A DNA stretch of 64,000 nucleotides from Candidatus Omnitrophota bacterium (GCA_903856085.1 CAIOAT010000016.1:8581-72580); one strand, 5' to 3'. Shown: positions 14,032 to 30,850, counted from the first letter of the stretch. The notes: generated by a model from the sequence alone, not told the origin. Made by a program: numbers and translations.

Positions 14032-14059
14032 AGACTCTCCCCTTTCAAAATTGATTTCC

Positions 14060-14279: not shown

Positions 14280-17200
14280 TTATGCCGCTACTTTAACAGC
14301 CTTTGCATTTCTCCAGGAAGCAGCAAGGAACTCTGTGACAAGCATCAAGGCATCTTTCATGCCCCAAAGATCCCGTTTTCTTCCTAGCTCAAAAAGTTGC
14401 CGACTTGTGACAAGATACCAGAGAAGAGAAAAAAGAACCTCCGGGTCAGAGCTCTTCAACTCCTTATCGTAATAAACAAGATTCCCAACGCAACTCTTCA
14501 CCTTTTGGACTTCGCGGCGATCGATTCCGACATAAGCATAATCCAAGCGTTGATATTGAGGTCCGGTGACTAAGGGACGCAGGAATTTCAAAATGGAAGC
14601 ACTAATGCTATCAGATATCTCTACTAGCTGAAAATGTCCGGTAGGAAGCTCCATTTTCTTTATCTTTTGTTCGATTGCCTCTTTCCCGGGAAATCGACTC
14701 CTCTCGAACAGGATAATGACACGGAACGGCAGCCGCGAAAGCAGCAAAAGATGCTCATCGCGAATTCCGATCCTCGCGTCCAGGAAAAGGGTGTTCAAGG
14801 CATTGGCCCGCTGCGGAAGAGCGCGGAACATTCCCATTCCTTTTTGGAAGGCTAAAAAATCGTCCCCTGATAGCGCTAAAAGCTCCTTCAGATCCGGTCC
14901 TGTGCTTTCTGAAAGAAAACTCGCGTCACCCAAAAGAGATTTTAAGCGCGGTAAAAGTTTTACATCCTCCGGTCCTAGGATCCATTCCGTGATCTTGATG
15001 GCAACCAGAAGACGGACTTTCTCCGAAACAACCGGCGTCACGTCTTCTTGCAAGGAAATCTCACGCGTAACCTCTTTGGGATTGAGTTCTAACGCTGGGG
15101 GTTTTTCGGAAGTTCTGTCTTCTCTCAATTCGGAACGCAGCACCCCACCAGGGCCCACAGCAGCCAACGCGGTTGCAATCGCCGAAAAGTGCGTCGTTAG
15201 AATCTTGTAAGTACGCGGCGTAAAGACACCTCGTTTTTCACGCAACATCGTAGAAACATCCTCGGGGGAGAGGGCCACGATCTCAACGGCATCATCTCCC
15301 GGTCTAAATTCTTTCCAATTGAACTCTCCATTGAGCGAAAAATGAAACAACTTTACATCCTCTTTTCTTGTGGTGGGAACTTGCCTTCGCCCCTCATGAT
15401 GAACTTCATAGGAAAGAGGAGGGAGCTCCCGAACTGGTAATGAGGTTAAGGCCGCGGGAAGAGGGCGGCCATCACGGAGTTCTTCAAGGAACCCCCTCTG
15501 GATTGCGGCTTCCGGACTTTCTCCGGGCTCCAGATGCTCAAAAACGGGAAGATCCAATAGACCCGGATTACTGGAAGTTAAATTACTGCGCCGCTGAAAA
15601 ACAACTTTTCCATCCTTGGTCACAAATGCGGCAACCTTTAAGGCCGCCAGACCTCTTGCATGCCCCTGTTTTCTTGGCAAGTGTACGATTTGATCGCCTC
15701 GCGTATCACGAAACATAAAAATCTGCCGATCCGCGAGCAATGAACCTTCCCCCTCCAATCGCTCGACGGCTGTACGGTTCGCCAGCTCCGGAAAAGATAC
15801 CTCGAGGCGCTTCATCCGCTCCAAAATCCCAGCCCGATTGCTCCCAGATATAAAAAAATGATCGGAAGGCGCCGGAACAAAAGCCTCCACTTCAGGAGGC
15901 TTCTGCGCAGTCGCACGAAAGGTCTCCCACAGTTTTTTCCCCATCGTGCTATAAATCTTCGCATATGGATTGGCGGCATCTTGTCCATCCGAAAACGTTT
16001 TTTGATTATGAGCGAGCCTCTGAAGATTAGGCGACACCGAAGTATTCCCTCGAAGCTGAAGATCGAACTCAGCAACCACTCTCGCAAAATCCTCTACGAG
16101 ATCCACCACAAAAGCTCCATATTTTGAGATCAAGCTTTCTGTTTTTTTACGAAATACGTCTATCAATCCTTCCATCTGTTGACGTTCCTCCTCCGTCCTT
16201 GAAACAAGAGCCATGGGCCCTTTGGGAACTGCAAATTGAGGCGTGATCGCATTATCCAATGTCAGACCGGTCCCGAACAAATGCCCATACTGACCTAAGG
16301 CACCTTTCAATTCTTCTGGGCGACGAACCACATGCTCCACATCATGCCTCGGAGAACCGTTACGCCCCAACAACACGGGATGCCGATCTGTTTCAACTTC
16401 TTCCAGAGAAGCAAGCCGTGCGTCAATAACGATCTGACTTCCCTGGTTGTTATAGCTGATCACATTCGAGCTCAGGTCGCCTCCAGGGAAAATGATCTCT
16501 CCATGCTTCACGCCTTGCTCCCTGAAGTCGCCTGCCATCCGCAAAGCTTCGGCAAGATTCATCTTAAAGACCGCCATAGCAACCGCCAAAGGAATACCTG
16601 GCTGCGGGAACCAATAGATCTGTAATTTTTTACCCAACGACTCCGCCAGATCGCGAGCGGCAAAAAATTGTCCGGCATTCCCCGGGAAAAGGCCGTCGGA
16701 TTCCGCTACTTTGAAACGGAAATGTTTCAGAACATGATCCTGCGCTACCATTGTTTCAAAAAAATTCCGATTCTCTCCGTTTTTAGGCGGGAGCAAAATG
16801 ATCACCTCGACGTCCTCCCTCAAATTTTCATCCAAAAGCGCCCGGCTCATCTTTGCCATCATAAGATTTTCTCCGGCGACATCGTCCATCTGGGAAAGGG
16901 CAACTTCCCTCCTGGGTTCTGAGGCCGGTCGTGACATTTCATATTGTTTGTTTCTCATACGTTTCGCGGACGCCCGTAAGGATTGGATCTCACGTTTGAA
17001 AGTCCCGTAACCATTTCCACTAAGATTCCTCAACATCGGCCCCACATGCCTCCAAACTGAGAAAAGGGTCCACAAAACACCAAAGATTGTCGGAACTGTA
17101 ATCAACAACTGGTGCAAACCAAATATAAGGTTCAGGATGGGTACAATAAAAAGAATCGCCACTCCGGCCACCGCCAATGCCCGGCCAAGCCATCGTCCAT

Positions 17201-20200
17201 AAAAATGGTCTAGCTTGTTTCCTTCCAGCTCATCAAGTTCGGCTGTGGGATGGAACGCTTTATGGAGTCCTGCTTTTGCCACGCGCATGGCCTCACGTTC
17301 ATTTTCAAATCCGGATATTCCCAGTTTTTGCATATTGGCCGTCACGCGTCTAAAGCTGTTCAGCGTCACCCACCGATTGATCGCCACCATCAGCGTCACC
17401 CCGAGGCAAAGACGCCATATGGAAAAGGTCCAGAGAACCTTCCGATTGTGCAGGATCTTCTGCCAATCCGAGAACTTCATTCCGTCTTGAAGCAATAACT
17501 TGGGAGGATAAAGATCGATTACCTGGGAAAGGGCAATGAGCCGATTCGACAGATTGAATCCTTCATTAAAATTCTCTGCAAAATCGGCTGATTTTTCAAG
17601 AAACCTCAAAACCTCCTGCTCTTCGATATCATTCCCAGTCCCCCGAGTCGCCTGAAATTGACGGGAAGCCGTCTGAGCGGTCAGGATCGATAAGCGGGCC
17701 AAAATCCCACGGATCTTGACCAGAGAATGCGTGTCGGGTTTCCACATTTCAGAAAGGTCCTCAAAATGTTCCCGGGAAAATCTAAGCAGCGGATGCTGCG
17801 CCAACTCGCTGGCCTTTGTGGTGATCATATCCCTTTCGCCCGAACCCAAGTGCTCATTTTCTAAAAGAAGTCGAGTCCAAGCCTGAAGCGGCTCAACGAT
17901 TTCCTGGAACACCCGCATATCCACGTCATCACCGCGGACCGCTCTTTGTTTATTAGCGTTTCTTTTTAAACGCATCCCGATTTTTCCCGCCTCGTCAAAG
18001 AGAATCTCTAGAGATTCCACGGAATCTCTCCGGAAAAACTTCTCATGCCCTCTTTTTTTCATCAATGCGAAAAAAAGTTTTGGAAGATTCCAGACAAGTA
18101 GAACCAAAGCAAGAACCGGGAAAAAACGCCAACTGATGTAACGAGCCCCAAAAGGGTTCATGAAATACCTCAAGAGAGCCGCTCGCTGCGTGGGATTTTG
18201 TTCTTCCCTTACTAGCTCCAAAAGTCCCAGAACCCCGATCTTTTGTCCGGGATGCATTTGAAATTGTTCCTGAACGGATGCGGGAATCGAATCTATTAAG
18301 CGAAGAGGTGGCGACTTTCTTTCGACAAGATCGCCTTTCTTCTTCGCCCAGGCTGAGGCTTTGGCGGACCCATCGAAAGCAATATCCGCAACACTACCCT
18401 CGCCAAGAATTCCCTCCGTATCGTCGCTGCGGATCACAACTCCCTCCCGTTCACCCAAAAGCCATTGGCTGCTGTTCGCGAGAGGGATCACTGCATACAC
18501 TGTCCCCATCAAAACGCCGCGGGATGTCACGACAGAGACTTTATCTCCTGTTTTAACGCTTCCCGTTTCGACAGGGAGCAGAAAAGGATCCTCATTGGAA
18601 AGACGGCCTGTCCATTCTGCAGAACGGGGGTCAACGCTCGTTCCCAAAAAAACCTCTTTGTTTACAATGCCGGCTTTCGTCACCTGCCCCGCCGCCAACG
18701 TTTGTCCATCTAAAGCAGTAACGCCCAGAACACGACCCCCCACGGGAGCTTTGAGCAGGATGGGCAATCCGCTCCGCTGGATCCCTGCAACGGCCCGCTG
18801 AGCTCTTTTTTCATAGTCCTGGAGAGAGCTTTCGGGAAGAGTCCTAAAGTCCTGGTTCGCCTTACGCATTGTCCGTGCAAGAGTCTCAAGCTGTCTGGCA
18901 ATCTTGAGCTGCCCACCTTGCCCCACAGGGATCCATTCCCCCAAGGAGTCCCCGGCCTTAACCGTTTGTCCATCCCGAACTGTAGCTCGAAAAATTCCGG
19001 CGTCGATCCCGGGAACGGGAGGAACACCGACCGGGATGAACTGTGAAGATGGAATAGTGGTGTGAAATCCGGCATTGTGATGCAATCCTAACGATTCGAC
19101 GCTCGGAGTATTATCTTTTATCAGCTTAATATCATATGCACAACTCGCCCCATGGGCCGGAAGAGATGTGGAAGATGGGAAGCTGAAATGAACTGTTAAA
19201 ATAAATTCGCCGTCCACTCCTTTCGCAAGGTCAAAATGACTTGCTTCCCAATCCAACACATTCACGGAATGCCCATTGACGGAAAGTTCGATATCATCGG
19301 CTCCGGAATATCCCGGAGGAAGAGCAATCTTTATGACCCCCTCATCCAGAGGAACGATCCCCACGGCATAACTACCAGCCGTTGCCGGCCCCTGATCCAG
19401 TGTTTGAACGATTGCCGGGCGGGGCGAAACCAGGATGTCGGCTTCTGCTTCCGCCTTCAGTTGAGCGAGCTCCAGTTGATGTTCGATCCTCTCAAATTGA
19501 TATTGAAATATTGTGTCCCGGTCGAGAGTCCCCGCATCTTTTTCTCCTCTGGCCACCAACCCGCCAAGTTCTCGGATCCTATCTTCCAGAAATTGAGTCC
19601 TGTTATCGCGTTCTGTATCCTCTCCTCTCGCAAGCAGGTCGCCTTTTTTGACAACATCTCCAGGTTTAACGGCATAAGTCATCTTATCTGCCGTCAATGG
19701 GGCTTTGAGCATGACCGCACCGGGAGGATTCACGATTGCTTGTCCTTTGCCTGTATACAAGACAGTTGCTGTGTTTGCGACAGAGTGTTGCTCTTCAAAC
19801 ACTGGTTTGACCTCTGTCCTATCAGAAACAAGGGAGGCTGATGCGACGGAAGACGGCTCTTTCACGGAAGCCTCCTCGTTCGTGACATTCAAAGCATTGG
19901 CAGTCCCGGCTGGGCTTTGAAATGGTATCCCGGAAAAATCTTTCTTCGTGAGTTTCTCCTTTGCGCCTGACGAAGTCATTACCTGTTCTCCTTGAGAAAC
20001 CGCATCGGCCAAGGTTTCGCGCCCATCCACGTTGCCTACACCAAGAATTTCGATGACGGAACTATCCGGAGAGACCGATTGGGGGTTGGATGTCGCATGA
20101 TCGGCTTCAGAAATTTTTGGGCTCTCCGCGGTGGTTGGAAGTGCGGAAGATGGCCCATCCGCAGAAACCCTGTCGGAGAGGACCGATGATGCCGCTGCAA

Positions 20201-23200
20201 CCGGAGAAATATACGCTCTCGATACTTTTGAAGAATGCCCGTTCTCTGGAACGGAAGACGCTCCCTCCAAAGAAACAATTCGGAAATAGCCTTGGTGTTG
20301 GGGCACCACCACGAATGTTGCTTCATAAGGATTCTTGGTTTCCTTGCGTAATGTCCAGATCCCCTTTCTTTCCGTTTTAAGAAATTTCGCACCCTGCAGG
20401 TCTTTTCCTAAAAAAGTCACTGTAGAGGAGGGAACGCCCCGCTGCATTAAAAGCTGCGCTCCTTTCATGTTTTCGGTGATCATTTGTTTGCCCACCAATT
20501 TCTGAATCGCCAATTCATTGGTTTGAGCCAAGGCTGACGAAGCCATGAGAAAAGCCCCCAGCAAAAATCCTCCCATTATTTTTAACAAGAAATGGATTCC
20601 CAGCTTTCGGCGAACTTCTGAACGCTGTGGTGCAATTCCTAGCCCGAAGAAATTTGCCCCGGTGATAACATTCAAAGGTTCTACCCACGTTTCGGATGCG
20701 CGCAGATCTGTAAAACCCTTCGTAGTCCATACTTTTTCGGATACAACTTGAGCATTCAACCAATCTCTTAGTTCGTCCGGGATAGTTTTTGATCCCACCA
20801 GTCTCCACGAGAAAACCTTCCGGGAAAAACCTAAGACGATTTGGATATCAGCAATGGGTGGGGCGTTTTGATTCGTCTTCACGTGAAATAGGGTGCCATT
20901 TATGCCAAGCTTGTGCCCTCGTCTTAAAAATCCCTGCAATTCTGGAGACATCTCCAAAACAATTTTGCCAAGATCAACCCTGTAAACCAACCCCGCAACC
21001 TTTGTCTCTGGCCCAAAAGCTTCAATGTGCTTCGCCGAAAGAGAGGCTGCGCTCCGCATTTCGAATCTTGTCACACCCTTCTTGAAAGACCGATAAGCCT
21101 GCATCAAAAGGCCTGCGGCGATTGCTGACGCTTCCTCTTTTTCTTCAGCCCTTAGCTTTGATTCCCGCGTGTTCAATTCGATATATTCACGAATTCGAAC
21201 GTTAAGTCCAGATAGCGCAGAGGAGGTAAAATTCATCTCGAAAGATTCGATCGCTTTAGCGGCTAGCGCGTAAGGAACCAAGGTATCCGGCAGATCCTTG
21301 GCCTGTCCAAGATCGTTTCTAACCGATTCCAAATCGGCAAAAGTAACCCCGCCATTCCGTTCTTTTCCATAAATGAGTCCCCACGCAAGCGCCCAAGCCG
21401 CCATCGCCTGCTCAGCAGGGATTCGAATGGCCCCCTTAGCCGACGTCATAAGCTCGAGTGACACGGCGAGCATAGACGTCGGGATCATTGCATCCGCATC
21501 ATCCAACAACCCGCCATCGATCAAGCTCACGATCGCATGATGGGCAAGAGCACGCACGGTTCCGCAATCACTGAGATTAAGTTGCAAAAGCACTTCTGCA
21601 CGCTTCAAAGCTTCCCCAAGGATTTCCTTATTCATAACGGGATCAAGATAATTTGAACGCGCCTCCGAACGAACGACGATTTGCGCTTTCACCGATCCCG
21701 GTTCAGAACGGCCAGACGCTGCCTTTTCGCGAGAAAACCGATGGCGAGAGAGTTTCGAATCAACATTGGAACGCCGAAAGGCCTCTGAAATCAAAACACC
21801 CAGATGAATTTTTTTAATCATTTTCAAAGCCACCCAGGAAAAGGCAATATCCCCCGTAAGGATGACGAGCTCTGAAAGGTAGGGGCTTACAAGCTTGTTG
21901 ATAATCATCGCCATCCCCTCAACAGGAAGGAACCATAACAACAATTGACGGCGACTCTCCTTAAAAGATCCGTGGCTTTTGAAGAGTCGTAGAGATTCGA
22001 AGTTATTTTCAGGATAGATGTTTGTATAATATTTCCAGAGCATAAGTGGATAAAAAATATAAAAATTGATCAAAGCATCCCCCATGGTTTTAAGGACGAT
22101 CTCAGACCACACATCAAGCCATGGGGAAAGATTTAATTTCCCGATTAAGGCATAATAAACGGTAAAAAATAAAGCGAACAAGCTAGCTGGAGCTGCGGCT
22201 TTCCTGGAGTCTTTCCAGAATGTTTTCATGAACACTCCTCGAAAGCCATGGCGAAGATAATCCTGCATCCAGACACAATATGCCGCAATCATGCCAGCCC
22301 AGGCGATACTCACGCCAAGTGAAAGAACTAAAGAATGCCATGACGCGTTCTGAAGATGCGGTTTAAGGATAAACGCCAGCCCCAGAGTGGCGGCTGAAAA
22401 TCCAGCTGTCCCCATCGCGGCAGGTGTGATTTGTTTGAGATGAGCGAGTTTGGATCTCTGGTTCCTTATTTCGGACCGGCCGAGCAAGACTTGGGGCAAT
22501 CCCTTTACGTCCCGAGTAAGCACTTGCAGCTCTTTGGCTGCCAATGTGGCCGCCTTGCGAGAGAATAGGATTTGGATCTGATTACTGGGGATCTTTAAAG
22601 CGTCCACAATAAGCCGGTCCTCGGTAACGCCAGCCCCACGAGCCTTTTTCAGATAGCCATCAATCCTTGCATTCTCGGCCTCCGCAATCCGTATCGTCTC
22701 ATTTTCAGCCACAATCGTTTGAAGAAGACCTGCAATCTTCTCTTCGATTTTGTCATGAACTGTCAAGAGCTCGGCTTCCGCTACACGAGTCTCCAGAAGA
22801 GCTATTTCCCGATTGGCTCGCTCAGCGCCCCCGAAAGTCACCTTCCCGCCGAGACCTACGGCCTGCTGATCCTCCGTGCGTTGTTTTGCCTCCGGAACAA
22901 CTCTTGTATTGAACACATCCGGAACTTTTGTCCCATAGGAATCGAAATAGTTGAATCCCTTAAGACCGATCGAGTAACCGTTCTCTCTTGCAGCCAATCT
23001 CGCGGCCGTTGCGGCAGTCAAACGGGCCTCATAAGCCAACGCAAGTTCACGGTTTGCCGGAAGTTTGACGCCTTCTTTGGAGGTTGCTTTAAGACCAAGC
23101 GCTATTCGTTGATCGGTTGTGATCGTCCACCCTTCCGGAAATCGCACATAATTCAAGGCATTGGAAAAAGTCGCACATCCTAAGATGTTTTGGCCATAGA

Positions 23201-25985
23201 GTGTCCTCAAAGGCAATGCCGCCTTCTCCAACTTGGAACGATGCTCATTAAGACGTAAAAGCCACTCCGCCTTAAGATCTCCGATCGCCTGGCGTTTTGC
23301 GGCTGTTGACTGCGAGTTCTTGCCGGCGACTTCGCTAGCATGATCGATCGCCTCAAGGGCTGCTTCAATAATTGGGCCTTGTGATTCAAGCGTTTTCATT
23401 TCGTAGGCGGCCCCCAAGAAATCGAGGTATCGTTCACCCGCCACCTGCTGAAGTTCCAGTCCGGCTGTTTCAACCATCTGCTGCGCCAGTTCTCGCGCCA
23501 GGATATCCTGACCTTTCCAGTATTTGCTAATCTCCGCTGCAAGGGATAACACCGCACTGGCCGCCGAATCCAAACCGATCCCCGTTAATTGTATCTGCCC
23601 AAGATTCGGCAAAGTTCCTTCGACGCCAAGCCCAAGCACCGGTTTCCCATCTGCGAGACCTAGGGTAGGCATGAGAGAAATGCTCCCGGACAAACTTCTT
23701 TTTTTGGATTCCCGGATACTCACCTCAAAACGGTGTCTCAGAATGACCGGATCGCGAGTAACCAATGCTTCAGCCAGGGAGCTTTCATTCACCAGAATCG
23801 GACCGGACAGAGAAATTTCTTTTTGCGGCAAAATGTACTGACGATCCGATTCGATCTGTTGTCTCGCATGGTCACGGCCCAAATTCGCACAACCGCTGAG
23901 AATGCCTGCCATTACAACCCAAAGAACCGCCTTCATGAACGAGGAGGGCTTCCATCGGATCTCGGCGCGCGAGAACAAATTGTTTTTTCCCTGGATCGCG
24001 TCGGGGAGCAATGCCAAAAGTCCCTTCTCCGCCCCGGGAGATAGCAAGGGAGTCGGATCTAAAATGAATCCGACATGGGTATTCATTCTCTGAAATAAGA
24101 AGCTCAAAACGTGTTGCTCTAATGCTTGACGAACTTCATGCATCCCTTTGTAAAATTTCTCCGGAATGGCTGCGAATATCCGTTGTCCCTCCCCATCCAT
24201 GAATGCCGACTTTCCCGTCTGGGATCTTTGGGCCAACACGCTGTGTTCTCCCTCGGAAACATCGACCACCGCCACTTGATGTTTTTTAAGTGATCTTTCG
24301 ATCTGTCCCATAGCCGCTTCAAAATGGTCAAATGCTGGCTCTCCGACCATCTGCCTCGCCTCGGAGTGTTCCATCACGGGGAGCTGCGCGGGAGCGATCG
24401 TAGACGTCCCGGGATACCGCCCCATCAAGAGATCACTATAGGGAAGCATCTTTTCTTCCGGGTTGAAATACGGCGTCACAAGATTGAACGGTATCCCAAG
24501 CGCTTCTGTTCGCCTGAGTAGTCCTTCCTTATGGTAGCCTCCGGCAACAATCACAATGTTTCTGGTTTTATTCCCCTGTCCATTCAAAAAAAGAGGATCT
24601 TGAATCCTTTTTTTGATGATATCAAAAAAAACATCTTCGCGAGCTTCTGCCTGAGCATAAAAATCCAAAACAAGGTCGACAAGGGGCGCTATCGTCTCTT
24701 CGTGAGGGAGTGATGGCTCCCGGAGAAAGCGCTTGTAAGCCTGCACCCAGTTCTTGCGAAAATGGTCGCGAAACCGGGCCACGCACTCCCTTTTAAGTTC
24801 AAGGGAAAGCGCCTGTTTCAGGAGGAAAAAATCCTGGTAAAAGGCAAGCCATCGTCCAGCTACCGGATCACTGCGACGGAGGGTCTCATACAACCTGTTC
24901 TCGAGCGTCTGGATTTCGTCAAAAAGTCTTTCGGCTATAAGTTCGCTTTCAAATACCTGCAAAGCAAGAAACTTCCGAATCATCGGATAACGTCCCCAAG
25001 AAAGCTCCCGTGCCAAAAATTTCTCCATGATGCGTTCCGCCATAACGCGAGAAGTCACGCTTCCAGTCTGAAGTGCGCGTGACCGGAAAGTTGCATTCGA
25101 AGCGGCGCTCTCGAGCCATTCGATTTCCGATCGAGAATCCGGACCAAGCACCCGTTTAAGCTGTCCGATTTCTTTCGTGACTGCGCTACAATCCGGTGCT
25201 GTTTCCGTATTCAAAACACGGAAAAACCGAACTAGCTGAGGCCAATCTTTTTGCGTCGAAAGATCCCGCCAATCGATTCCCAAATGCTTCGAAGAGCAAT
25301 CAAAAAGAAACTTCATGTACTCGCTTAAATCATTTTGGCTTTCCTGATGAGATCTCCACATTTTCAAGAAATGGAATACCTGCGGATCAATAACTTTTTT
25401 GATATCTTGAATTAATGATGCCTCCACCTGATCAAGAAACTCTCGAATCTCACCATGGTTGCGCATAACGGCCCGGTAAGTTTCGAGGTTCTTTCGGTAA
25501 AGCCCTGCCTCCTCAATCCCGTACACGCGTATGCCGGAGTGATTTGCAAAGAATTGAGTGGCGCCATTAACGAATCCCGCTTGGAAAAGGCTTCCCAAAA
25601 AGATCCTGTTCTTTTCATCATCCTGGAAAGGCTTCAGAGCCTCGGGAGACAGAGGGCCTGATGCACCTTCAATAAAAAGCATATCGAGTTTCTTTTGCTC
25701 TAGAAGGGACTCTAGTATCTTCGTAATATTCTTTTGAGCCTCTTCCGAAGCATGCGCATCTTGGATATGGTAGAAACTGAAAGGCACGGACCTTTCCGGG
25801 GGCGGGGACTTTTCAAGGCTTCCTACTTTGGGGGATAAAAAAACGGGGGCTTCGGCAACAGCGCCGGTATAAAAATATGCCGTCACAGCACGCACTTCTT
25901 GGGAAGGAAAAATGGTTTCAAAAACAAAAATGGCCACAACAGCAAATGCTACGATCCGGATCAATTTGCTTTTCTTGGCTTTCAT
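14280..25985 (-). CDS. Giant multi-module envelope protein or polyprotein (3,901 aa from ATG 25985; the frame is open from TTG 26015 = 3,911 aa)
   Basis: A single uninterrupted frame of 11.7 kb. The N-terminus is MKAKKSKLIRIVAFAVVAIFVFETIFPSQEVRA (signal anchor). The modules are listed as separate features below. Confidence 0.8.
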   Translation of the reverse strand: MKAKKSKLIRIVAFAVVAIFVFETIFPSQEVRAVTAYFYTGAVAEAPVFLSPKVGSLEKSPPPERSVPFSFYHIQDAHASEEAQKNITKILESLLEQKKLDMLFIEGASGPLSPEALKPFQDDEKNRIFLGSLFQAGFVNGATQFFANHSGIRVYGIEEAGLYRKNLETYRAVMRNHGEIREFLDQVEASLIQDIKKVIDPQVFHFLKMWRSHQESQNDLSEYMKFLFDCSSKHLGIDWRDLSTQKDWPQLVRFFRVLNTETAPDCSAVTKEIGQLKRVLGPDSRSEIEWLESAASNATFRSRALQTGSVTSRVMAERIMEKFLARELSWGRYPMIRKFLALQVFESELIAERLFDEIQTLENRLYETLRRSDPVAGRWLAFYQDFFLLKQALSLELKRECVARFRDHFRKNWVQAYKRFLREPSLPHEETIAPLVDLVLDFYAQAEAREDVFFDIIKKRIQDPLFLNGQGNKTRNIVIVAGGYHKEGLLRRTEALGIPFNLVTPYFNPEEKMLPYSDLLMGRYPGTSTIAPAQLPVMEHSEARQMVGEPAFDHFEAAMGQIERSLKKHQVAVVDVSEGEHSVLAQRSQTGKSAFMDGEGQRIFAAIPEKFYKGMHEVRQALEQHVLSFLFQRMNTHVGFILDPTPLLSPGAEKGLLALLPDAIQGKNNLFSRAEIRWKPSSFMKAVLWVVMAGILSGCANLGRDHARQQIESDRQYILPQKEISLSGPILVNESSLAEALVTRDPVILRHRFEVSIRESKKRSLSGSISLMPTLGLADGKPVLGLGVEGTLPNLGQIQLTGIGLDSAASAVLSLAAEISKYWKGQDILARELAQQMVETAGLELQQVAGERYLDFLGAAYEMKTLESQGPIIEAALEAIDHASEVAGKNSQSTAAKRQAIGDLKAEWLLRLNEHRSKLEKAALPLRTLYGQNILGCATFSNALNYVRFPEGWTITTDQRIALGLKATSKEGVKLPANRELALAYEARLTAATAARLAARENGYSIGLKGFNYFDSYGTKVPDVFNTRVVPEAKQRTEDQQAVGLGGKVTFGGAERANREIALLETRVAEAELLTVHDKIEEKIAGLLQTIVAENETIRIAEAENARIDGYLKKARGAGVTEDRLIVDALKIPSNQIQILFSRKAATLAAKELQVLTRDVKGLPQVLLGRSEIRNQRSKLAHLKQITPAAMGTAGFSAATLGLAFILKPHLQNASWHSLVLSLGVSIAWAGMIAAYCVWMQDYLRHGFRGVFMKTFWKDSRKAAAPASLFALFFTVYYALIGKLNLSPWLDVWSEIVLKTMGDALINFYIFYPLMLWKYYTNIYPENNFESLRLFKSHGSFKESRRQLLLWFLPVEGMAMIINKLVSPYLSELVILTGDIAFSWVALKMIKKIHLGVLISEAFRRSNVDSKLSRHRFSREKAASGRSEPGSVKAQIVVRSEARSNYLDPVMNKEILGEALKRAEVLLQLNLSDCGTVRALAHHAIVSLIDGGLLDDADAMIPTSMLAVSLELMTSAKGAIRIPAEQAMAAWALAWGLIYGKERNGGVTFADLESVRNDLGQAKDLPDTLVPYALAAKAIESFEMNFTSSALSGLNVRIREYIELNTRESKLRAEEKEEASAIAAGLLMQAYRSFKKGVTRFEMRSAASLSAKHIEAFGPETKVAGLVYRVDLGKIVLEMSPELQGFLRRGHKLGINGTLFHVKTNQNAPPIADIQIVLGFSRKVFSWRLVGSKTIPDELRDWLNAQVVSEKVWTTKGFTDLRASETWVEPLNVITGANFFGLGIAPQRSEVRRKLGIHFLLKIMGGFLLGAFLMASSALAQTNELAIQKLVGKQMITENMKGAQLLMQRGVPSSTVTFLGKDLQGAKFLKTERKGIWTLRKETKNPYEATFVVVPQHQGYFRIVSLEGASSVPENGHSSKVSRAYISPVAAASSVLSDRVSADGPSSALPTTAESPKISEADHATSNPQSVSPDSSVIEILGVGNVDGRETLADAVSQGEQVMTSSGAKEKLTKKDFSGIPFQSPAGTANALNVTNEEASVKEPSSVASASLVSDRTEVKPVFEEQHSVANTATVLYTGKGQAIVNPPGAVMLKAPLTADKMTYAVKPGDVVKKGDLLARGEDTERDNRTQFLEDRIRELGGLVARGEKDAGTLDRDTIFQYQFERIEHQLELAQLKAEAEADILVSPRPAIVQTLDQGPATAGSYAVGIVPLDEGVIKIALPPGYSGADDIELSVNGHSVNVLDWEASHFDLAKGVDGEFILTVHFSFPSSTSLPAHGASCAYDIKLIKDNTPSVESLGLHHNAGFHTTIPSSQFIPVGVPPVPGIDAGIFRATVRDGQTVKAGDSLGEWIPVGQGGQLKIARQLETLARTMRKANQDFRTLPESSLQDYEKRAQRAVAGIQRSGLPILLKAPVGGRVLGVTALDGQTLAAGQVTKAGIVNKEVFLGTSVDPRSAEWTGRLSNEDPFLLPVETGSVKTGDKVSVVTSRGVLMGTVYAVIPLANSSQWLLGEREGVVIRSDDTEGILGEGSVADIAFDGSAKASAWAKKKGDLVERKSPPLRLIDSIPASVQEQFQMHPGQKIGVLGLLELVREEQNPTQRAALLRYFMNPFGARYISWRFFPVLALVLLVWNLPKLFFALMKKRGHEKFFRRDSVESLEILFDEAGKIGMRLKRNANKQRAVRGDDVDMRVFQEIVEPLQAWTRLLLENEHLGSGERDMITTKASELAQHPLLRFSREHFEDLSEMWKPDTHSLVKIRGILARLSILTAQTASRQFQATRGTGNDIEEQEVLRFLEKSADFAENFNEGFNLSNRLIALSQVIDLYPPKLLLQDGMKFSDWQKILHNRKVLWTFSIWRLCLGVTLMVAINRWVTLNSFRRVTANMQKLGISGFENEREAMRVAKAGLHKAFHPTAELDELEGNKLDHFYGRWLGRALAVAGVAILFIVPILNLIFGLHQLLITVPTIFGVLWTLFSVWRHVGPMLRNLSGNGYGTFKREIQSLRASAKRMRNKQYEMSRPASEPRREVALSQMDDVAGENLMMAKMSRALLDENLREDVEVIILLPPKNGENRNFFETMVAQDHVLKHFRFKVAESDGLFPGNAGQFFAARDLAESLGKKLQIYWFPQPGIPLAVAMAVFKMNLAEALRMAGDFREQGVKHGEIIFPGGDLSSNVISYNNQGSQIVIDARLASLEEVETDRHPVLLGRNGSPRHDVEHVVRRPEELKGALGQYGHLFGTGLTLDNAITPQFAVPKGPMALVSRTEEERQQMEGLIDVFRKKTESLISKYGAFVVDLVEDFARVVAEFDLQLRGNTSVSPNLQRLAHNQKTFSDGQDAANPYAKIYSTMGKKLWETFRATAQKPPEVEAFVPAPSDHFFISGSNRAGILERMKRLEVSFPELANRTAVERLEGEGSLLADRQIFMFRDTRGDQIVHLPRKQGHARGLAALKVAAFVTKDGKVVFQRRSNLTSSNPGLLDLPVFEHLEPGESPEAAIQRGFLEELRDGRPLPAALTSLPVRELPPLSYEVHHEGRRQVPTTRKEDVKLFHFSLNGEFNWKEFRPGDDAVEIVALSPEDVSTMLREKRGVFTPRTYKILTTHFSAIATALAAVGPGGVLRSELREDRTSEKPPALELNPKEVTREISLQEDVTPVVSEKVRLLVAIKITEWILGPEDVKLLPRLKSLLGDASFLSESTGPDLKELLALSGDDFLAFQKGMGMFRALPQRANALNTLFLDARIGIRDEHLLLLSRLPFRVIILFERSRFPGKEAIEQKIKKMELPTGHFQLVEISDSISASILKFLRPLVTGPQYQRLDYAYVGIDRREVQKVKSCVGNLVYYDKELKSSDPEVLFSLLWYLVTSRQLFELGRKRDLWGMKDALMLVTEFLAASWRNAKAVKVAA
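15156..15665 (-). other. Giant ORF Nudix-hydrolase module (aa ~3451-3620) with a variant Nudix box
   Basis: LKVAAFVTKDGKVVFQRR...LDLPVFEHLEPGESPEAAIQRGFLEELR fits GX5EX7REUXEEXGU, except that RE is replaced by RG. The box is at nt 15477-15554. Confidence 0.6.
18336..19763 (-). other. Giant ORF module E (aa ~2085-2560): HlyD/membrane-fusion-protein-like periplasmic adaptor segments
   Basis: Lipoyl-like hairpin motifs YAVKPGDVVKKGDLLARGE and ATVRDGQTVKAGDSLGEW. Coiled-coil stretch FERIEHQLELAQLKAEAEA. Beta-barrel-like segments LKAPVGGRVLGVTALDGQTLAAGQ and VKTGDKVSVVTSRGVLMGTVYAVIP. Confidence 0.5.
19791..20213 (-). other. Ser/Pro/Ala-rich low-complexity linker (aa ~1935-2075)
   Basis: Sequence SPVAAASSVLSDRVSADGPSSALPTTAESPKISEADHATSNPQSVSPDSS...EPSSVASASLVS. 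Confidence 0.6.
20526..20609 (-). other. Internal Sec-type signal peptide (aa 1803-1830: RKLGIHFLLKIMGGFLLGAFLMASSALA|QT)
   Basis: A basic n-region, a hydrophobic core and an A-L-A cleavage motif, starting immediately after RSEVR. Confidence 0.55.
21672..22463 (-). other. Giant ORF module C (aa 1185-1448): roughly six-helix integral membrane module, unknown family
   Basis: Hydrophobic stretches occur near aa 1201-1217, 1226-1249, 1275-1293, 1305-1327, 1356-1376 and 1381-1400. The module is bounded by RSEIR and RSEAR. Confidence 0.5.
22479..23888 (-). other. Giant ORF module B (aa 710-1179): TolC/OEP-like outer-membrane factor
   Basis: About 470 aa, the typical OMF size, with a two-fold internal organisation. 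N-terminal block SLAEALVTRDPVILRHRFEVSIRE...MPTLGL; second half LALAYEARLTAATAARLAARENGYSIGLKG. Long Ala/Glu/Leu-rich helices are present, and a lipobox precedes it as in NodT-type OMFs. Confidence 0.5.
23889..23936 (-). other. Internal lipoprotein-type signal peptide with lipobox (aa 694-709: MKAVLWVVMAGILSG|C)
   Basis: A hydrophobic core is followed by I-L-S-G-C, which matches the L-[AS]-[GA]-C lipobox. The Cys709 codon (tgt) is at 23889-23891. The signal starts 7 residues after RAEIR. Confidence 0.6.
24456..25784 (-). other. Giant ORF module A (aa ~78-520): candidate Tiki/TraB/ChaN-superfamily fold
   Basis: FYHIQDAHASEEAQKNITKILESLLEQKKLDMLFIEGASG resembles the GExH...H...E pattern. The late block RNIVIVAGGYHKEGLLRRTEALGIPF resembles the G..H block of ChaN/TraB proteins. 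This is pattern memory only. Confidence 0.35.
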
Positions 25986-26096
25986 TTTTTGCCCTTTTCC
26001 AATGGTGGAAGACAACTCTTTAAGGTTTTATAAAAGTTTTTCCTTCTGATCTCACGGAAAGCTTAACTTCGTTGTGAAAACTCTGCATCACATCCC

Positions 26097-26439: not shown

Positions 26440-27129
26440 ATGGCAAGCGAAACGATTCTCCTCATTGAAGACGAAAAGAACATCCTTGAGCTTGTGAAAT
26501 ACAACCTCGAGCAGGAGGGTTTTCGCGTCCTCACCGCGACCAAAGGCAACGCAGGTCTTGAGACAGCGCTTAAAGAAAAACCAGCCCTTGTGCTCCTCGA
26601 CCTCATGCTCCCGGAAATCAATGGCCTCGAGATTTGCAAAACCCTAAAACAGACCGAAAAAACACGCAGGATCCCTATCATCATGCTTACGGCCAAAGGC
26701 ACCGAGTCCGATAAAGTCGTCGGCCTCGAACTCGGCGCCGATGATTACATCACCAAACCTTTCAGCCCCCGGGAACTCGTAGCTCGCATCAAAGCCGTCC
26801 TTAGACGCTCTCAGGAAAAAGCCCCGGAAGAGATCTTGAGATCCGGAACGATCGAGCTTGACGTGACAAAGCATGAGCTGCGATTAAAAGGAAAGCCCGC
26901 CGAAATTACCGCCAAAGAATTCGAACTCTTGCGCGTACTCATGAGTTCCAAGGAACGGGTCCTGACGCGCGAGGTTCTCTTATCAAAAGTTTGGGGTTAT
27001 GAGAATTCTGTGAATATCGAAACGCGGACTGTCGACATGCACGTCGGACAGCTACGAAAAAAACTTGGCAAAGAAGCGGATCGGATCGTCACGGTTAAAA
27101 GCGTCGGCTACCGTTTCGACGGAGAATAA
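26440..27129 (+). CDS. phoB: OmpR/PhoB-family response regulator (phosphate regulon regulator)
   Basis: Receiver domain (ILLIEDEKNILELV, LVLLDLMLPE, MLTAKG) plus a winged-helix C-terminus (TRTVDMHVGQLRKKL, VKSVGYRF). It is adjacent to a PhoR-like kinase and to the pst/ppk genes. Confidence 0.8.
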   Translation: MASETILLIEDEKNILELVKYNLEQEGFRVLTATKGNAGLETALKEKPALVLLDLMLPEINGLEICKTLKQTEKTRRIPIIMLTAKGTESDKVVGLELGADDYITKPFSPRELVARIKAVLRRSQEKAPEEILRSGTIELDVTKHELRLKGKPAEITAKEFELLRVLMSSKERVLTREVLLSKVWGYENSVNIETRTVDMHVGQLRKKLGKEADRIVTVKSVGYRFDGE

Positions 27130-27130
27130 G

Positions 27131-28903
27131 ATGGGCTTTCCAAAGATCGGTTTCGCCAAACGTCTCCTCGTGCTGTATGGCATTATTTTCATCCTCGTCC
27201 TGCTCGTAACCGATTGGACGCTTTCTCATTTCCTCCAAAAGCGTGACCTCCAACAGCTTCAGAGCTCTCTTTCGCGTCAGTCGACCCTGATCCGCGAGAT
27301 TGCGACTCCTCTATTAAAGGAGGCTCCCAAGCTCCAATCCAAAGTCAAAAAGCTAGCCGAGGGGACCGATCTTCGCATCACGATCATCGATCCCGAAGGC
27401 GCGATCCTTGCCGATTCCAGTGAAACCAGCGAGGCTCTCGCGAAAATGGACAATCACGCGACCCGGCCCGAGGTTGCGTCCGCACTGAGAAAAGAAACGG
27501 GCATGAGCATCCGTTACAGCATGACTGTTCAGACCAAAATGCTTTATATCGCTATCCCCATCCTGGAACACTCCCAGATCCTAGGGGTCGTTCGCACCGC
27601 GATGCCGATCACACGCGTCGATGAGATCCTGGCCTCGGTCCGCCGACCCGTGATGCTCGCAGCGGTCCTCGGCATTTTGATCGTCCTCGTTGCCGGCATT
27701 CTCTTCGGCGGTCGCCTCACCCAACGCATAGGACGCATCACCTCCGTAGCCGAACGTTATGCCCGCGAGGACTGGTCTGAAAAAATCCTGATGGACGGCC
27801 GCGACGAGCTCAAAATGCTCGCAGATACCATGAATCAAATGGCCACATCCCTGCGCTCAAGGATCGAAGACCTGGAAAGTGAGAAAGGTAAGATTTCCGT
27901 CATTTTGAGCAATATGAACGAAGGGGTGATCGCGATTAGCCGGCGCAAACAGTTTGTTATGGCAAATCCCGCAGCGGAAAAAATCTTTGGATTCACTGCC
28001 GCCCATACGCAGGAGAAAAGTCTGATCGAAATCACACGCCACCCTCAACTCGAAAGGATCGTGGACCACGCCTTCCAGGAGCAAAAAAACGCCTCCTCCG
28101 AAATCCAGATCTCCGGCAAGATAAAAAAGACACTTCTTGCAAATGTGATCGTTCTCGATGCCCACGCCCGCGATATCGGCGGCATCCTTGTTTTTCATGA
28201 CATGACGGAGCTCCGTCGACTCGAGAATATCCGGAAGGAATTCGTAGCCAATGTTTCCCACGAACTCCGCACGCCCCTCACCTCGATTAAGGGATTCATT
28301 GAAACGTTGCTGGGCGGCGCCTTAAAAGATCCCCCGACCAGCGAACGGTTCCTGAAAATTGTTTCGGAGGAGACGGATCGACTCGGAAGGCTGGTGGAAG
28401 ATATTCTGACGCTTGGCGAGATCGAACAGGGCGCGGCTCTGGTCAGGAAAGAAAAGATCGATCTTGCCTCTGAACTCCCGGCCATCCTGGAACGATTTAA
28501 GACCCAGCTCCAAGAAAAAAAGATCGCGGTCGAAAACCGCATCTCCGGGAAACCTCTCCCGCTATCTGGAGACAGGGACAAAGTCCATCAGGTCTTCGTC
28601 AATCTCATCGACAATGCGATCAAATTCAATAAGCCTGAAGGGATGATCGTCCTGTCTGCCGATCAAAGTCCGAAAGGCGTGGTGATTACCATCGAGGATA
28701 CGGGGATCGGTATTCCTGAAGAGTCCCTAGGACGGATTTTTGAGCGGTTCTTTCGTGTGGATAAAGCACGTTCAAAGGAGCTTGGAGGAACCGGATTGGG
28801 CCTAGCCATCGTTAAACACATCATGGAAGCGCATGGCGGCCACGCCACATGCCAAAGCACCCCCGGCCAGGGTTCCCGCTTTTCGGTTTTTTTTCCCGCC
28901 TGA
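27131..28903 (+). CDS. phoR: Sensor histidine kinase, PhoR-like
   Basis: Two TM helices flank a ~150-aa loop. PAS segment NMNEGVIAISRRKQFVMANPAAEKIFG, H-box FVANVSHELRTPLTSIKG, N/G boxes NLIDNAIKFN, DTGIGIP and GGTGLGLAIVKHI. ATG 27131 is separated from the phoB stop by a single nt. The track start at 27065 is rejected. Confidence 0.8.
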   Translation: MGFPKIGFAKRLLVLYGIIFILVLLVTDWTLSHFLQKRDLQQLQSSLSRQSTLIREIATPLLKEAPKLQSKVKKLAEGTDLRITIIDPEGAILADSSETSEALAKMDNHATRPEVASALRKETGMSIRYSMTVQTKMLYIAIPILEHSQILGVVRTAMPITRVDEILASVRRPVMLAAVLGILIVLVAGILFGGRLTQRIGRITSVAERYAREDWSEKILMDGRDELKMLADTMNQMATSLRSRIEDLESEKGKISVILSNMNEGVIAISRRKQFVMANPAAEKIFGFTAAHTQEKSLIEITRHPQLERIVDHAFQEQKNASSEIQISGKIKKTLLANVIVLDAHARDIGGILVFHDMTELRRLENIRKEFVANVSHELRTPLTSIKGFIETLLGGALKDPPTSERFLKIVSEETDRLGRLVEDILTLGEIEQGAALVRKEKIDLASELPAILERFKTQLQEKKIAVENRISGKPLPLSGDRDKVHQVFVNLIDNAIKFNKPEGMIVLSADQSPKGVVITIEDTGIGIPEESLGRIFERFFRVDKARSKELGGTGLGLAIVKHIMEAHGGHATCQSTPGQGSRFSVFFPA

Positions 28904-28918
28904 TCCACCCTTACGTTT

Positions 28919-30373
28919 CTAGTTAAAATTGAGAACGATGGCCTTGCAACGCGTCATAGCCTCGATCGAATAGCGGATCCCCTGGGTCCCCATTCCTGAA
29001 CTTTTAACCCCGATGAACGGAAAATGATCCGGGCCGCGTTCTGTTTTTCCATTGACCTGAATCGTCCCTACCTCTAGACGCGCCGCAACTCTGAATGCCT
29101 CATCCATGCTCTTCGTGAAGACGGAAGCTTGCAGGCCATATTCGGAATCGTTTGTAATCTTGATCGCTTCGTCGATCGTTTTCACGCGCAAGATCGGGAG
29201 TACCGGCCCAAAAGGCTCTTCCCAAGCAATTCGCATATCCACCGTCACCCGGTCAAAGAGGGTCGGGAAAATAATATTCTTTTCGCGTTTATTTCCGGTC
29301 AAAAGTTTGGCGCCTTTTTGGACTGCATCATCGATAAGCTCCTGAACAAAATCCGCGGCTTCTTTTGAGATCAGCGGGGTAATATCCGCATCATCCTCCG
29401 GTAAACCCACGCTCAATTTTTGCACAAGCGGCAAAATCTTTTCGATCAGTTTGTCGGCCACGGACTCCAACACGAGGATCCGTTTCACCGCTGTACACCG
29501 CTGTCCGGAAAAAGAGAAGGCCCCGCCGACGATATGTTGGGCGGCTAACGAAAGATCGGCATCTTCCAAAACGATCGCCGCATCCTTGCCGCCGAGCTCC
29601 AAAAGTAGCGGCTTCATACCGACAAGAGAAGCGATATGTTTTCCGACCTTGCTGCTTCCCGTAAAGGCGACCATGTTGACGAGCGGATGGCTGACCAAAT
29701 AATCCCCGATCGCACGGCCTTGCCCCGTAATGACATTAAGAACGCCCGCCGGCAGCCCTGCTTCGCAGAAGACACGCGCCAAATAAAGGGCGCTGATGGC
29801 TCCCTGCGTCGGAGGTTTGAAGACCACCGAGTTTCCCGCCACAAGAGCCGGCGTGATCTTGGAAGCGGCTAGATTGATGGGATAATTGAATGGAGCGATC
29901 GCAAGCACGACCCCCAGCGGAACACGATTTACGATCGAAAGTTTCGTTTCATGAAAGCCGGGGAACGCTCCCGACGAAAGACTTTCGCCCGTGACGCGCT
30001 TCCCTTCTTCCGCCGTAAAATGGATCAGGTCCGCAGTCCGGGTCACCTCGGAAAGAGAGGATTTTTTATTCTTGGCGATCTCGCGCATCAGGACATCTGC
30101 GATCGCATCCTTCTCGCGAACAAGGATCTCGGCCGCCTTGTGGAGAACGGCGGCACGCTCGCTCACCGGGACCGCGGCCCAGGACTTTTGCGCCGCAGCC
30201 GAACATTTTAAAAATTCATCGGCCTCTTCTTGGCTCATCGCGGGCACTTCCCCGACAAGCGACCCGTCGGTGGGTGAGAAAATCTTATCCCGCTTCCCGG
30301 AGCGCGAAGTCACCCATTGACCATTAAGAAGATTCTTATATTTTTGCCCTTCACTAAAAATACAACGGAACAT
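28919..30373 (-). CDS. gapN: Non-phosphorylating NADP-dependent glyceraldehyde-3-phosphate dehydrogenase
   Basis: 484 aa. It is collinear throughout with GapN-type ALDHs (KYKNLLNGQW..., PFNYPINLAASKI, ELGGKDAAIVLEDADL, FSFSGQRCTAVKR, EEPFGPVLPILRV). Confidence 0.9.
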   Translation of the reverse strand: MFRCIFSEGQKYKNLLNGQWVTSRSGKRDKIFSPTDGSLVGEVPAMSQEEADEFLKCSAAAQKSWAAVPVSERAAVLHKAAEILVREKDAIADVLMREIAKNKKSSLSEVTRTADLIHFTAEEGKRVTGESLSSGAFPGFHETKLSIVNRVPLGVVLAIAPFNYPINLAASKITPALVAGNSVVFKPPTQGAISALYLARVFCEAGLPAGVLNVITGQGRAIGDYLVSHPLVNMVAFTGSSKVGKHIASLVGMKPLLLELGGKDAAIVLEDADLSLAAQHIVGGAFSFSGQRCTAVKRILVLESVADKLIEKILPLVQKLSVGLPEDDADITPLISKEAADFVQELIDDAVQKGAKLLTGNKREKNIIFPTLFDRVTVDMRIAWEEPFGPVLPILRVKTIDEAIKITNDSEYGLQASVFTKSMDEAFRVAARLEVGTIQVNGKTERGPDHFPFIGVKSSGMGTQGIRYSIEAMTRCKAIVLNFN

Positions 30374-30397
30374 TTTGACCTGCCCTTTCGTGGAACT

Positions 30398-30850
30398 TTA
30401 TTTACTTCGCTTTTTTGTCGCGGCTTTTTGGGTGAGAGGAACACGCTCGTGGGCTTTTTTCCCAAGCGGACGGTAATAACAAACACTGGGCTCACCGAGC
30501 TGCCAGGAAAAATAAACCTCCTGGCCCTCATGTGTACCAAAGAATTCGACATGGCCTTTTTCGATATTACGGAGAAGACAGCCCCTCGCAAAGATCGCTT
30601 CAATATCTTTGGCCAGGTCCTCGATCGCATCTTCAAGCGCGTGAATGCCGTCTTCCAGATCATCTTTTTCTTCTAAAAGCCCGTGTGTCCGCTCGGCCGT
30701 GCAAACAAGCTCATGCATAAAAAGAAGATCGTGAGTGCGGCTGTAGGCTTCTTTCTTGGTCTGGAGAAGTTTAAGGCATTTTTCAAGTTCGGGAAGTAAA
30801 GCATCGGCTTCTTCTTTCGAAAAAATGCGTTTCTTCTTCAAAGGCTTCAC
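30398..30850 (-). CDS. DUF2203-family protein
   Basis: 150 aa. FSKEEADALLPELEKCLKLL... and ...GCLLRNIEKGHVEFFGTHEGQEVYFSWQLGEPSVCYY match my memory of the DUF2203 pattern. Confidence 0.55.
   Translation of the reverse strand: MKPLKKKRIFSKEEADALLPELEKCLKLLQTKKEAYSRTHDLLFMHELVCTAERTHGLLEEKDDLEDGIHALEDAIEDLAKDIEAIFARGCLLRNIEKGHVEFFGTHEGQEVYFSWQLGEPSVCYYRPLGKKAHERVPLTQKAATKKRSK

Follow-up and report, generated by a model that had tools for sequence, protein, structure and literature searches.

We analysed a 64,000-nucleotide stretch of DNA from Candidatus Omnitrophota bacterium (GCA_903856085.1 CAIOAT010000016.1:8581-72580), hereafter called the window, which carries a giant open reading frame (ORF) whose modules are separated by a short recurrent peptide, R[SA]ExR. 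Directly behind one copy of this peptide, about 700 residues inside the frame, lies a lipoprotein signal followed by a TolC-like module. The junctions are probably proteolytic sites that free a lipoprotein precursor; we infer the cleavage, as well as the cut position and the enzyme, from sequence comparison.

The giant ORF (window 14280-26015, minus strand) is uninterrupted over 3,911 codons counted from a TTG at 26015. Its likely start is the ATG at 25985, which has a Shine-Dalgarno (SD)-like AAAGGG upstream and gives a protein of 3,901 amino acids (aa). Residue numbers in this study run from TTG 26015, and ATG 25985 is residue 11. The possibility that separate genes were fused by an assembly or sequencing error was considered. 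The identical 3,901-aa protein was found on 14 contigs from several sources, and 18 contigs were read in a further look. Syntenic orthologues of two other species, at ~31% and ~53% identity, keep the ORF open over 3,300-3,900 codons, and orthologues of 3,329-4,000 aa share synteny with the giant gene in other species. The identical protein on multiple contigs and the syntenic full-length orthologues rule out such an artefact for practical purposes. A search with the whole protein gave 76 relatives, all of them giant (2,170-6,482 aa), whose named sources are metagenome-assembled genomes (MAGs) of Omnitrophota (most), Auribacterota, Elusimicrobia and Endomicrobiaceae.

Window positions 23889-23969 on the minus strand encode RAEIR-WKPSSFMKAVLWVVMAGILSGC (residues 683-709), with Met694 at 23934-23936 and Cys709 at 23889-23891. 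The segment was evaluated using our own implementation of a PROSITE PS51257-type lipoprotein rule, {DERK}(6)-[LIVMFWSTAG](2)-[LIVMFYSTAGCQ]-[AGS]-C, with K or R among the first 7 residues and the Cys at position 15-35 as further terms. WKPSSFMKAVLWVVMAGILSG-C passed the rule from W688 (Cys at position 22) and also from M694 (Cys at position 16), and was the sole match among the 3,911 residues of the giant ORF. In shuffled homologues, the rule matched 4 times over 294,283 residues, so that ~0.05 matches are expected per protein of this size. The lipobox Cys was invariant, in an L-[ST]-G-C-like box, in all nine aligned sequences (21-55% identity), and the signal stands in front of the TolC-like module in each of them. 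The hydrophobic region and the Cys were kept down to 21% identity, whereas the flanking linkers diverged. Six relatives retrieved by an exhaustive search (P0088, P0090, P0091, P0092, P0095, and P0098) also carried a lipobox signal. Judged by its rarity and conservation, the lipoprotein signal is not a chance feature. A preliminary description of this DNA had proposed a signal peptidase II (SPII)-like signal with a lipobox at residues 688-709 and, from Met694, a perfect stand-alone signal; the first was confirmed as exactly placed, canonical by the rule and conserved in 9/9 sequences, and the second (MKAVLWVVMAGILSGC) fits the same rule.

The module behind the signal has ~470 residues, the size of an outer membrane factor (OMF). 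An AlphaFold 2 (AF2) model built on the nine-sequence alignment had a predicted local distance difference test (pLDDT) score of 71.8 and showed long helices alternating with paired strands in two repeats, as in an OMF protomer, with the strand parts at low confidence. When this model was compared with PDB using Foldseek, the top 44 matches were all OMFs, including ST50, TolC, OprM, CusC, CmeC, MtrE, VceC, and NodT (E 1.7e-12 to 1.4e-2; template modelling (TM) score 0.55-0.67 across 450-510 columns). Sequence profiles did not reach this assignment: the module scored 20.3 bits against Pfam PF02321 OEP, below the cut-off of 22 and for one repeat only, and a profile of the TolC-like family reached no solved OMF in PDB. 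Thus, the TolC-like identity suggested in the preliminary description stood by structure and size, and found no backing from sequence profiles.

Eight of the 76 relatives share the TolC-like module, and in all nine aligned sequences it ends in R-x-E-x-R. Searched exhaustively with HMMER, 1.84 billion representative proteins yielded only 29 relatives of the module, nearly all of them internal segments of 840-4,060-aa proteins; the only two OMF-sized proteins gave weak and partial matches. The same description had taken the module for a formerly independent lipoprotein gene. Living relatives lend no support to this part, since the OMF subfamily occurs almost only inside large proteins and no close free-standing relative is there to show such a gene.

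Two other arrangements of the same modules were seen. A set of proteins of 1,800-3,200 aa (P0096-P0106) lacks both the N-terminal head domain described below and the junction motif; it carries a membrane fusion protein (MFP)-like module and then a TolC-like module in one chain, with no signal ahead of the TolC-like part, and joins the two modules in a different way. The genome of homologue P0009 (L128 1-5720) has a three-gene OEP-MFP-ACR_tran (RND) operon ~2 kb upstream of its polyprotein gene, with three small genes in between. Thus, operon-encoded and polyprotein-encoded OMF/MFP pairs coexist.

R[SA]ExR occurs five times in the giant ORF, as RAEIR (residue 683), RSEIR (1180), RSEAR (1449), RSEVR (1798), and RSELR (3627), and was absent outside the giant ORF in a six-frame scan of ORF fragments of at least 150 aa over the 64-kb window. 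The five copies differ in synonymous codons, indicating that selection acts on the peptide; a signal at the nucleotide level was rejected on the same ground. The 76 giant homologues together contain 264 copies of R[ASP]ExR, compared with ~20 in the shuffling expectation, and single proteins have as many as 19. Position 2 varies between S, A and P across the homologues, and each lineage prefers its own x residue (e.g., RSELR, RAEVR, RSEAR, and RSESR). The polyprotein reading of the preliminary description thereby gained strong comparative support: dozens of giant homologues carry the junction motif repeatedly between modules, and RAEIR is one instance of it.

The motif marks the borders of modules. 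Its copies sit between non-homologous modules and lie in low-confidence linkers of both predicted models (the head and the TolC-like module), and homology blocks between orthologues stop at motif copies, e.g., at residue 1174 of P0001. The fragments between motif copies in the homologues are mostly 100-400 aa long. Eight such fragments were scanned, and each consisted of one or two whole Pfam units (HPr, receiver, kinase, methyltransferase, and PP2C). In seven of the eight, the first unit began at profile position 1-5 and 3-33 residues from the start of the fragment; in the remaining one, the PP2C match began at profile position 36.

Some lineages without R[SA]ExR use other pentapeptides at equivalent places, namely G[AS]RL[AS] (13 copies in P0058), AARLS (5 copies in P0036), and A.SLG (6-10 copies in P0022, P0030, and P0026). 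RASSAG was another recurrent inter-module sequence, in a set that includes loci L009, L057, and L013 with other dialects. In the lineages with other dialects, the first copy again stands right behind the head, and P0058 and P0026 end a few residues past their last copy.

Behind the junctions stand targeting signals of the N-terminal type. In the orthologues, a motif copy comes directly before the lipoprotein signal (of the TolC-like module) and a Sec signal (of an adaptor-like module), except for the lipobox signal in four of them, which are discussed below. Sec-type signals stand directly behind the motif ahead of the MFP-like module in P0002-P0008, RSExR precedes the lipobox signal of the TolC-like module in P0088, P0091, P0092, and P0095, and twin-arginine translocation (Tat) signals of the form S-R-R-x-F-L lie behind junctions in P0007, P0021, P0025, P0087, P0092, and P0099. 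The three dialects keep one motif-signal-module arrangement: P0090 has AASLG, a Tat-lipobox signal and a TolC-like module, P0098 has GARLA, a lipobox and a TolC-like module, and two of the 13 G[AS]RL[AS] copies of P0058 stand before Tat signals. Overall, a hydrophobic signal-like stretch follows 13.4% of the motif copies compared with 4.7% of random positions, and the other 87% of copies precede units without a following hydrophobic segment. The best explanation for such signals, Tat included, is that new N-termini arise at the junctions in the cytoplasm.

The position of the lipobox in the chain bears on this point. SPII signals are N-terminal, and the Cys of the uncut chain is ORF residue 709 (699 from the ATG), so that an N-terminal position would arise only after junction cleavage or internal initiation. 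That Lgt and LspA need a free N-terminus is a reasonable expectation rather than an established rule; internal signals do get processed in viral polyproteins.

We considered that the protein stays uncut as a giant polytopic membrane protein, in which the lipobox segment is a transmembrane helix or signal-anchor, perhaps clipped on the periplasmic side by LspA or signal peptidase, and R[SA]ExR is a 'positive-inside' flank. Internal signal-anchors start translocation in polytopic proteins and viral polyproteins, and host signal peptidase clips flavivirus polyproteins. The basic motif favours the N-in orientation of the next helix, the N-terminal signal suggests that the chain is made at the membrane, and no cytoplasmic protease has been identified. 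The topology of the chain does not fit this explanation. With the head exported and no hydrophobic segment between residues 36 and 694, the lipobox helix of a single chain would be oriented N-out/C-in and the TolC-like module would end up in the cytoplasm, which bears out the orientation objection raised in the preliminary description; cutting at the junctions would resolve it. In addition, the motif also precedes soluble cytoplasmic units, as well as twin-arginine signals, which serve folded precursors, and, from the architecture of OMFs, a trimeric outer-membrane channel cannot remain tethered to inner-membrane helices on both sides. We regard the uncut protein as unlikely.

Internal initiation would supply a free N-terminus in another way: ribosomes starting at Met694 on the long mRNA would make the pro-lipoprotein, and the in-frame fusion would be irrelevant to export. 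Met694 gives a textbook stand-alone signal, an ATG or TTG occurs at an equal offset (11 codons past the motif start) in the window, P0006, and P0003, and ~40% of the ordinary genes of the window also have no SD-like element. The start-like codons are of little weight, however, because any signal peptide can be expected to contain codons for Leu, Val and Met. No SD-like element lies at usable spacing upstream of Met694 (...GATGGAAGCCCTCCTCGTTC), as had been pointed out before, nor does one in front of the start-like codons of P0003 and P0006. No promoter-like site was found upstream of Met694; internal promoters or terminators at module borders in general were unsupported, their counts being at or below shuffle expectation. 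Internal initiation also leaves the recurrent motif unexplained, including its copies before cytoplasmic modules and before Met-free signals (RSEVR-RKLGIHFLL..., with no Met between the motif and the hydrophobic region). Moreover, a product started at Met694 would run ~3,200 residues further unless cut at RSEIR, so that cleavage would be needed anyway. This explanation therefore seems improbable.

The motif could instead be a non-proteolytic linker that serves as a structural cap or is bound by, for example, a chaperone, a kinase or a targeting factor, with the internal signals as non-functional relics of fusion. Recurrent linker motifs are known from other multidomain proteins. A phospho-acceptor role does not fit a position 2 that may be S, A or P. 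Relic signals would decay, and the hydrophobic region and lipobox Cys are conserved as described above, although the linkers around them diverge; the retention of the motif-signal-module arrangement in three dialects also argues against relics. We consider a linker role a poor fit, about as improbable as internal initiation.

Under the favoured reading, proteolysis at the junctions, the giant ORF would be a bacterial polyprotein whose R-[S/A]-E-x-R junctions are cut from the cytoplasmic side, either as the chain is being translated or shortly afterwards. A cut at RAEIR, or at the degenerate junction HSEAR (residues 550-554), would free a precursor with WKPSSFMKAVLWVVMAGILSG-C as its N-terminal signal. 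This precursor would be exported by Sec, receive a diacylglyceryl group on Cys709 from Lgt, lose its signal to LspA and be carried by Lol to the outer membrane, where the end product would be a lipidated TolC-like channel; outer-membrane sorting is expected because residue +2 is Ala. Genes for Lgt, LspA and Lol were absent from the 64-kb window. A cut at RSEVR would give a signal-anchored HlyD-like adaptor fused to the membrane and NUDIX parts, and other cuts would release the signal-bearing head, a membrane protein of ~4 helices, a soluble module and the C-terminal module, with the remaining pieces staying in the membrane or cytoplasm. An envelope-spanning machine of OMF and MFP would thus be made from one reading frame rather than an operon.

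We examined the head as a candidate for the protease. The N-terminal 450-500 residues are the only part common to all 76 homologues, and iterative hidden Markov model (HMM) searches found no second family-wide module that could be an alternative protease. An alignment of 40 heads showed invariant H88, E116, G166, R459, G492, G493, and H495, and nearly invariant Q85, D86 (at least 90%), and A87, in the arrangement ...HIQDAH...EG...R...GGxH.... The candidate catalytic set is D86-x-H88...E116...R459...H495. The structure of RRSP has a 2His/2Glu set (E3900-x-H3902, E3930, and H4030) together with R4001, which is common to TIKI enzymes (PMC6254334). The H88-to-E116 spacing of 28 is the same as in RRSP; the match is one of order and spacing, not of residue-level superposition. 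The head model has an alpha/beta core with a parallel beta-sheet, as in the TIKI/TraB/EreA/ChaN superfamily.

Database comparisons of the head gave weaker results. Foldseek with the head model returned no significant match, and sequence profiles of the head reached no solved member of the superfamily in PDB. PF04187 was matched weakly by 11 of the 40 heads (best E 2.5e-4), with single matches to Erythro_esteras and DUF5694, and the window's own head matched no family model. We place the head in the TIKI/EreA/ChaN/TraB superfamily with moderate confidence.

A search of genome contigs with a single head sequence found no relative, and a protein search with a profile of the head gave just two proteins. 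A back-translated DNA pattern, HIQDAH-27-EG, was then scanned in one genome per species, using loci of 8 kb, and detected at least 120 loci, nearly all in Omnitrophota MAGs, with more than one in several genomes. Among the 120 listed loci, the HIQDAH motif lay 1-192 residues from the ORF start in all 120, and the ORF ran off the 8-kb locus in 97. Two heads were free-standing (P0085, 480 aa, and P0086, 440 aa) and ended about where the first junction of the polyproteins sits; the gene after the free-standing head begins with its own signal peptide.

Unusually long sugar-enzyme proteins are encoded beside the free-standing heads (L001 11460-17550 and L004 7134-12250). They contain a DeoC-type aldolase (788 aa), an FBPase (1,208 aa), and a triose-phosphate isomerase (923 aa), each with an N-terminal Sec-type signal, a puzzling feature for 'cytoplasmic' sugar enzymes. 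The aldolase- and FBPase-containing proteins of L001 and a 303-aa protein of L004 share a C-terminus ...SGV*, which the isomerase-containing protein lacks, and two proteins near free-standing heads carry VDDLRARRP just behind the signal.

The lineage-specific dialects imply a dedicated protease that co-evolves with the junctions. The head is the leading candidate, being universal, always first, and related to a superfamily with site-specific endopeptidases; we put this assignment forward tentatively. If the head is the protease, the NLFSRAEIRWKPS peptide would be its substrate. The phylogeny of the heads compared with the junction dialects did not discriminate.

Several observations weigh against the cleavage reading or this choice of enzyme. 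Cleavage at the motif is inferred rather than observed. In P0004, P0005, P0008, and P0009, the nearest motif lies ~20-50 residues before the lipobox signal and is not adjacent to it. In 37 of 74 family members, no pentapeptide recurred according to a simple search, and R[SAP]ExR was present in only 19 of the 120 listed species-representative loci; the junction rule is therefore shown for a clade and not for the whole family. Every complete head begins with a canonical N-in Sec signal peptide, so that the head should be exported to the periplasm, whereas the cutting must be cytoplasmic, because junctions precede Tat, Sec and SPII signals and cytoplasmic enzymes. The head as junction protease thus has a location problem. 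The cuts may be made by a different, cytoplasmic protease, the head being just the first product to be exported, or by the head itself before its export or without it. Neither the giant ORF nor its neighbours yielded another protease candidate.

A broader proposal, which we offer as speculative, is that Omnitrophota and relatives generally express polyproteins in which an N-terminal TIKI-superfamily head endopeptidase, co-evolving with a lineage-specific pentapeptide (such as R[SA]ExR, GARLA or AxSLG), cuts the chains into complete and separately targeted proteins, which would comprise lipoproteins, substrates of Tat and Sec, membrane proteins and enzymes of the cytoplasm. If true, cells would have their own equivalent of the processing of viral polyproteins, which would supply the missing cleavage points of giant genes, and pathways and whole envelope machines would be encoded as a single ORF. 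If the junctions are cut, a multi-compartment envelope machine would arise from a single frame, its stoichiometry set by proteolysis instead of an operon.

We compared the system with known ones. The module resembles NodT/OprM-type OMF lipoproteins in fold (a long alpha-barrel, four beta-strands per protomer and an internal repeat), size, and its L-x-G-C lipobox, and a putative HlyD/MacA-like adaptor accompanies it, as in tripartite efflux and type I secretion systems. Unlike the operon-encoded NodT and OprM, it lies inside a 3,911-codon ORF, is very divergent in sequence, and has no recognised pump domain: no RND, ABC or MFS inner-membrane domain was recognised in the giant ORF. Flaviviridae polyproteins likewise combine one ORF, short recurrent junctions, embedded signal peptides and products for different compartments. 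In contrast to viral polyproteins, the gene studied here is cellular and chromosomal and its housekeeping neighbourhood is conserved, its signals include bacterial SPII and Tat types, and the candidate protease has a TIKI-like fold rather than that of the chymotrypsin-like or papain-like viral proteases. MARTX toxins are processed by a cysteine protease domain after delivery into the host cell, and their TIKI-family RRSP is a cargo and not the processing enzyme, whereas the modules here resemble envelope and metabolic proteins of the cell itself and carry the cell's own targeting signals.

Giant 'multi-enzyme' proteins of Omnitrophota have been described, for which cleavage was suspected, C39 and S8 peptidase domains were proposed and the cleavage points were unknown (West-Roberts et al. 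2023, 10.1101/2023.11.21.568195; 10.64898/2026.06.07.730766). The same preprints name the missing cleavage points as an obstacle to analysis, and 'cytoplasmic' enzymes predicted outside the membrane as a puzzle. Our protein shares with those the Omnitrophota setting, mixed enzymes including NUDIX, and the same puzzle of 'cytoplasmic' enzymes. It differs in size, its 3.9 kaa being far below the >=10-30 kaa of the preprint proteins, and the preprints (10.1101/2023.11.21.568195; 10.64898/2026.06.07.730766) make no mention of a recurrent junction motif, internal lipoprotein or Tat signals, or TIKI-like N-terminal domain. Neither the junction motif nor a comparable bacterial polyprotein was described in the literature searched. 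New here are the junction motif and its dialects, the targeting signals systematically behind it and the TIKI-like head. The motif provides a simple, testable rule for dividing giant Omnitrophota proteins into their products, with R[SA]ExR or the pentapeptide of the respective lineage as the dividing point. For thousands of 'dark' giant ORFs, such a rule would improve annotation as well as the prediction of localisation and structure. A new specificity class of TIKI-superfamily proteases is also suggested.

The features of the giant protein are listed in Table 1.

Table 1 Modules, junctions and targeting signals of the giant protein and their positions in the window.
Feature	Residues	Window position	Strand	Basis or remark
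Giant ORF, putative polyprotein		14283..25985	-	Stop codon 14280-14282
Sec-type N-terminal signal peptide of the head, MKAKKSKLIRIVAFAVVAIFVFETIFPSQEVRA	11-43	25887..25985	-	Equivalent at essentially every complete N-terminus of the family
Head, TIKI/EreA/ChaN/TraB-like alpha/beta core with ~300-residue helical insertion	60-537	24405..25838	-	Model, conserved residues
Degenerate junction HSEAR, directly behind the head	550-554	24354..24368	-	RSEAR here in orthologue P0004; low-pLDDT linker in the head model
Linker module	555-682	23970..24353	-	No detectable relatives
Junction RAEIR	683-687	23955..23969	-	Sequence
SPII-type lipoprotein signal WKPSSFMKAVLWVVMAGILSG-C, lipobox L-S-G-C, Cys709	688-709	23889..23954	-	Rule match and conservation
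TolC-like OMF module	709-1179	22479..23891	-	AF2 model and Foldseek
Junction RSEIR	1180-1184	22464..22478	-	R-x-E-x-R invariant here in 9/9 aligned sequences
Membrane module S3, ~4 hydrophobic helices	1185-1448	21672..22463	-	Common to P0005, P0007, and P0008
Junction RSEAR	1449-1453	21657..21671	-	Motif scan
Soluble module S4	1454-1797	20625..21656	-	Bracketed by RSEAR and RSEVR
Junction RSEVR	1798-1802	20610..20624	-	Motif scan
Sec-type signal or signal anchor RKLGIHFLLKIMGGFLLGAFLMASSALA-QT, directly behind RSEVR	1803-1832	20520..20609	-	Sequence
Periplasmic adaptor (MFP/HlyD-like) module	1833-2630	18126..20519	-	Profile against PDB, Pfam
Membrane-anchored/cytoplasmic part	2631-3626	15138..18125	-	Helices near 2634, 2861, 2947-2988, unassigned 450-residue region, NUDIX
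NUDIX domain	3461-3597	15225-15635	-	Part of segment 2631-3626
Junction RSELR	3627-3631	15123..15137	-	Similar near-C-terminal copy in P0002, P0003, P0005, P0006, P0008, and P0009
C-terminal module S6	3632-3911	14283..15122	-	Unassigned; always C-terminal in 9 relatives

The hydrophobic part of the N-terminal signal comprises residues 18-36. The putative adaptor module gave profile matches in PDB (4l8j MFP, 3.3e-7; MacA and EmrA, ~2e-3) and in Pfam, where HlyD_3 matched four and HlyD_D23 three of nine members; the window copy matched only Biotin_lipoyl_2, at 4e-4. Profiles of residues 3001-3450 and of module S6 found no informative solved relative, and NCBIfam gave nothing useful for any segment of the giant protein. 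Module S4 has no counterpart in any homologue, the 53%-identical ones included, and resembles a cassette that was inserted between two junctions.

The whole 64-kb window was free of tRNA genes and of Rfam families at the gathering threshold. Among the housekeeping genes, ORFs of 521 and 406 aa (window 34714-37884, minus strand) had no Pfam match at E<=1e-5. Two further ORFs, of 396 aa (61914-63104, plus strand) and 370 aa (61953-63065, minus strand), overlap almost fully, and the plus-strand ORF has no Pfam match.

The giant gene lies in an ordinary chromosomal neighbourhood of normal-sized genes (window 1-14061 and 26440-33505), which is conserved and has a phosphate/polyphosphate character. 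Upstream is a divergent PhoR/PhoB-like pair, consisting of a HAMP-PAS histidine kinase (HK) and an OmpR-type response regulator (RR). Downstream are genes for a ROK kinase, Ppx/GppA, and PPK1, followed by PPK2, a Porin_5 porin, and PstS-like and PstC-like proteins, and tricarboxylic acid (TCA)-cycle genes are located on the other side of the giant gene. The core order Aldedh, HK/RR, giant gene, ROK, Ppx, and PPK1 is kept in two other species (L126 and L127). The NUDIX-bearing machine may be linked to phosphate metabolism or Pho regulation.

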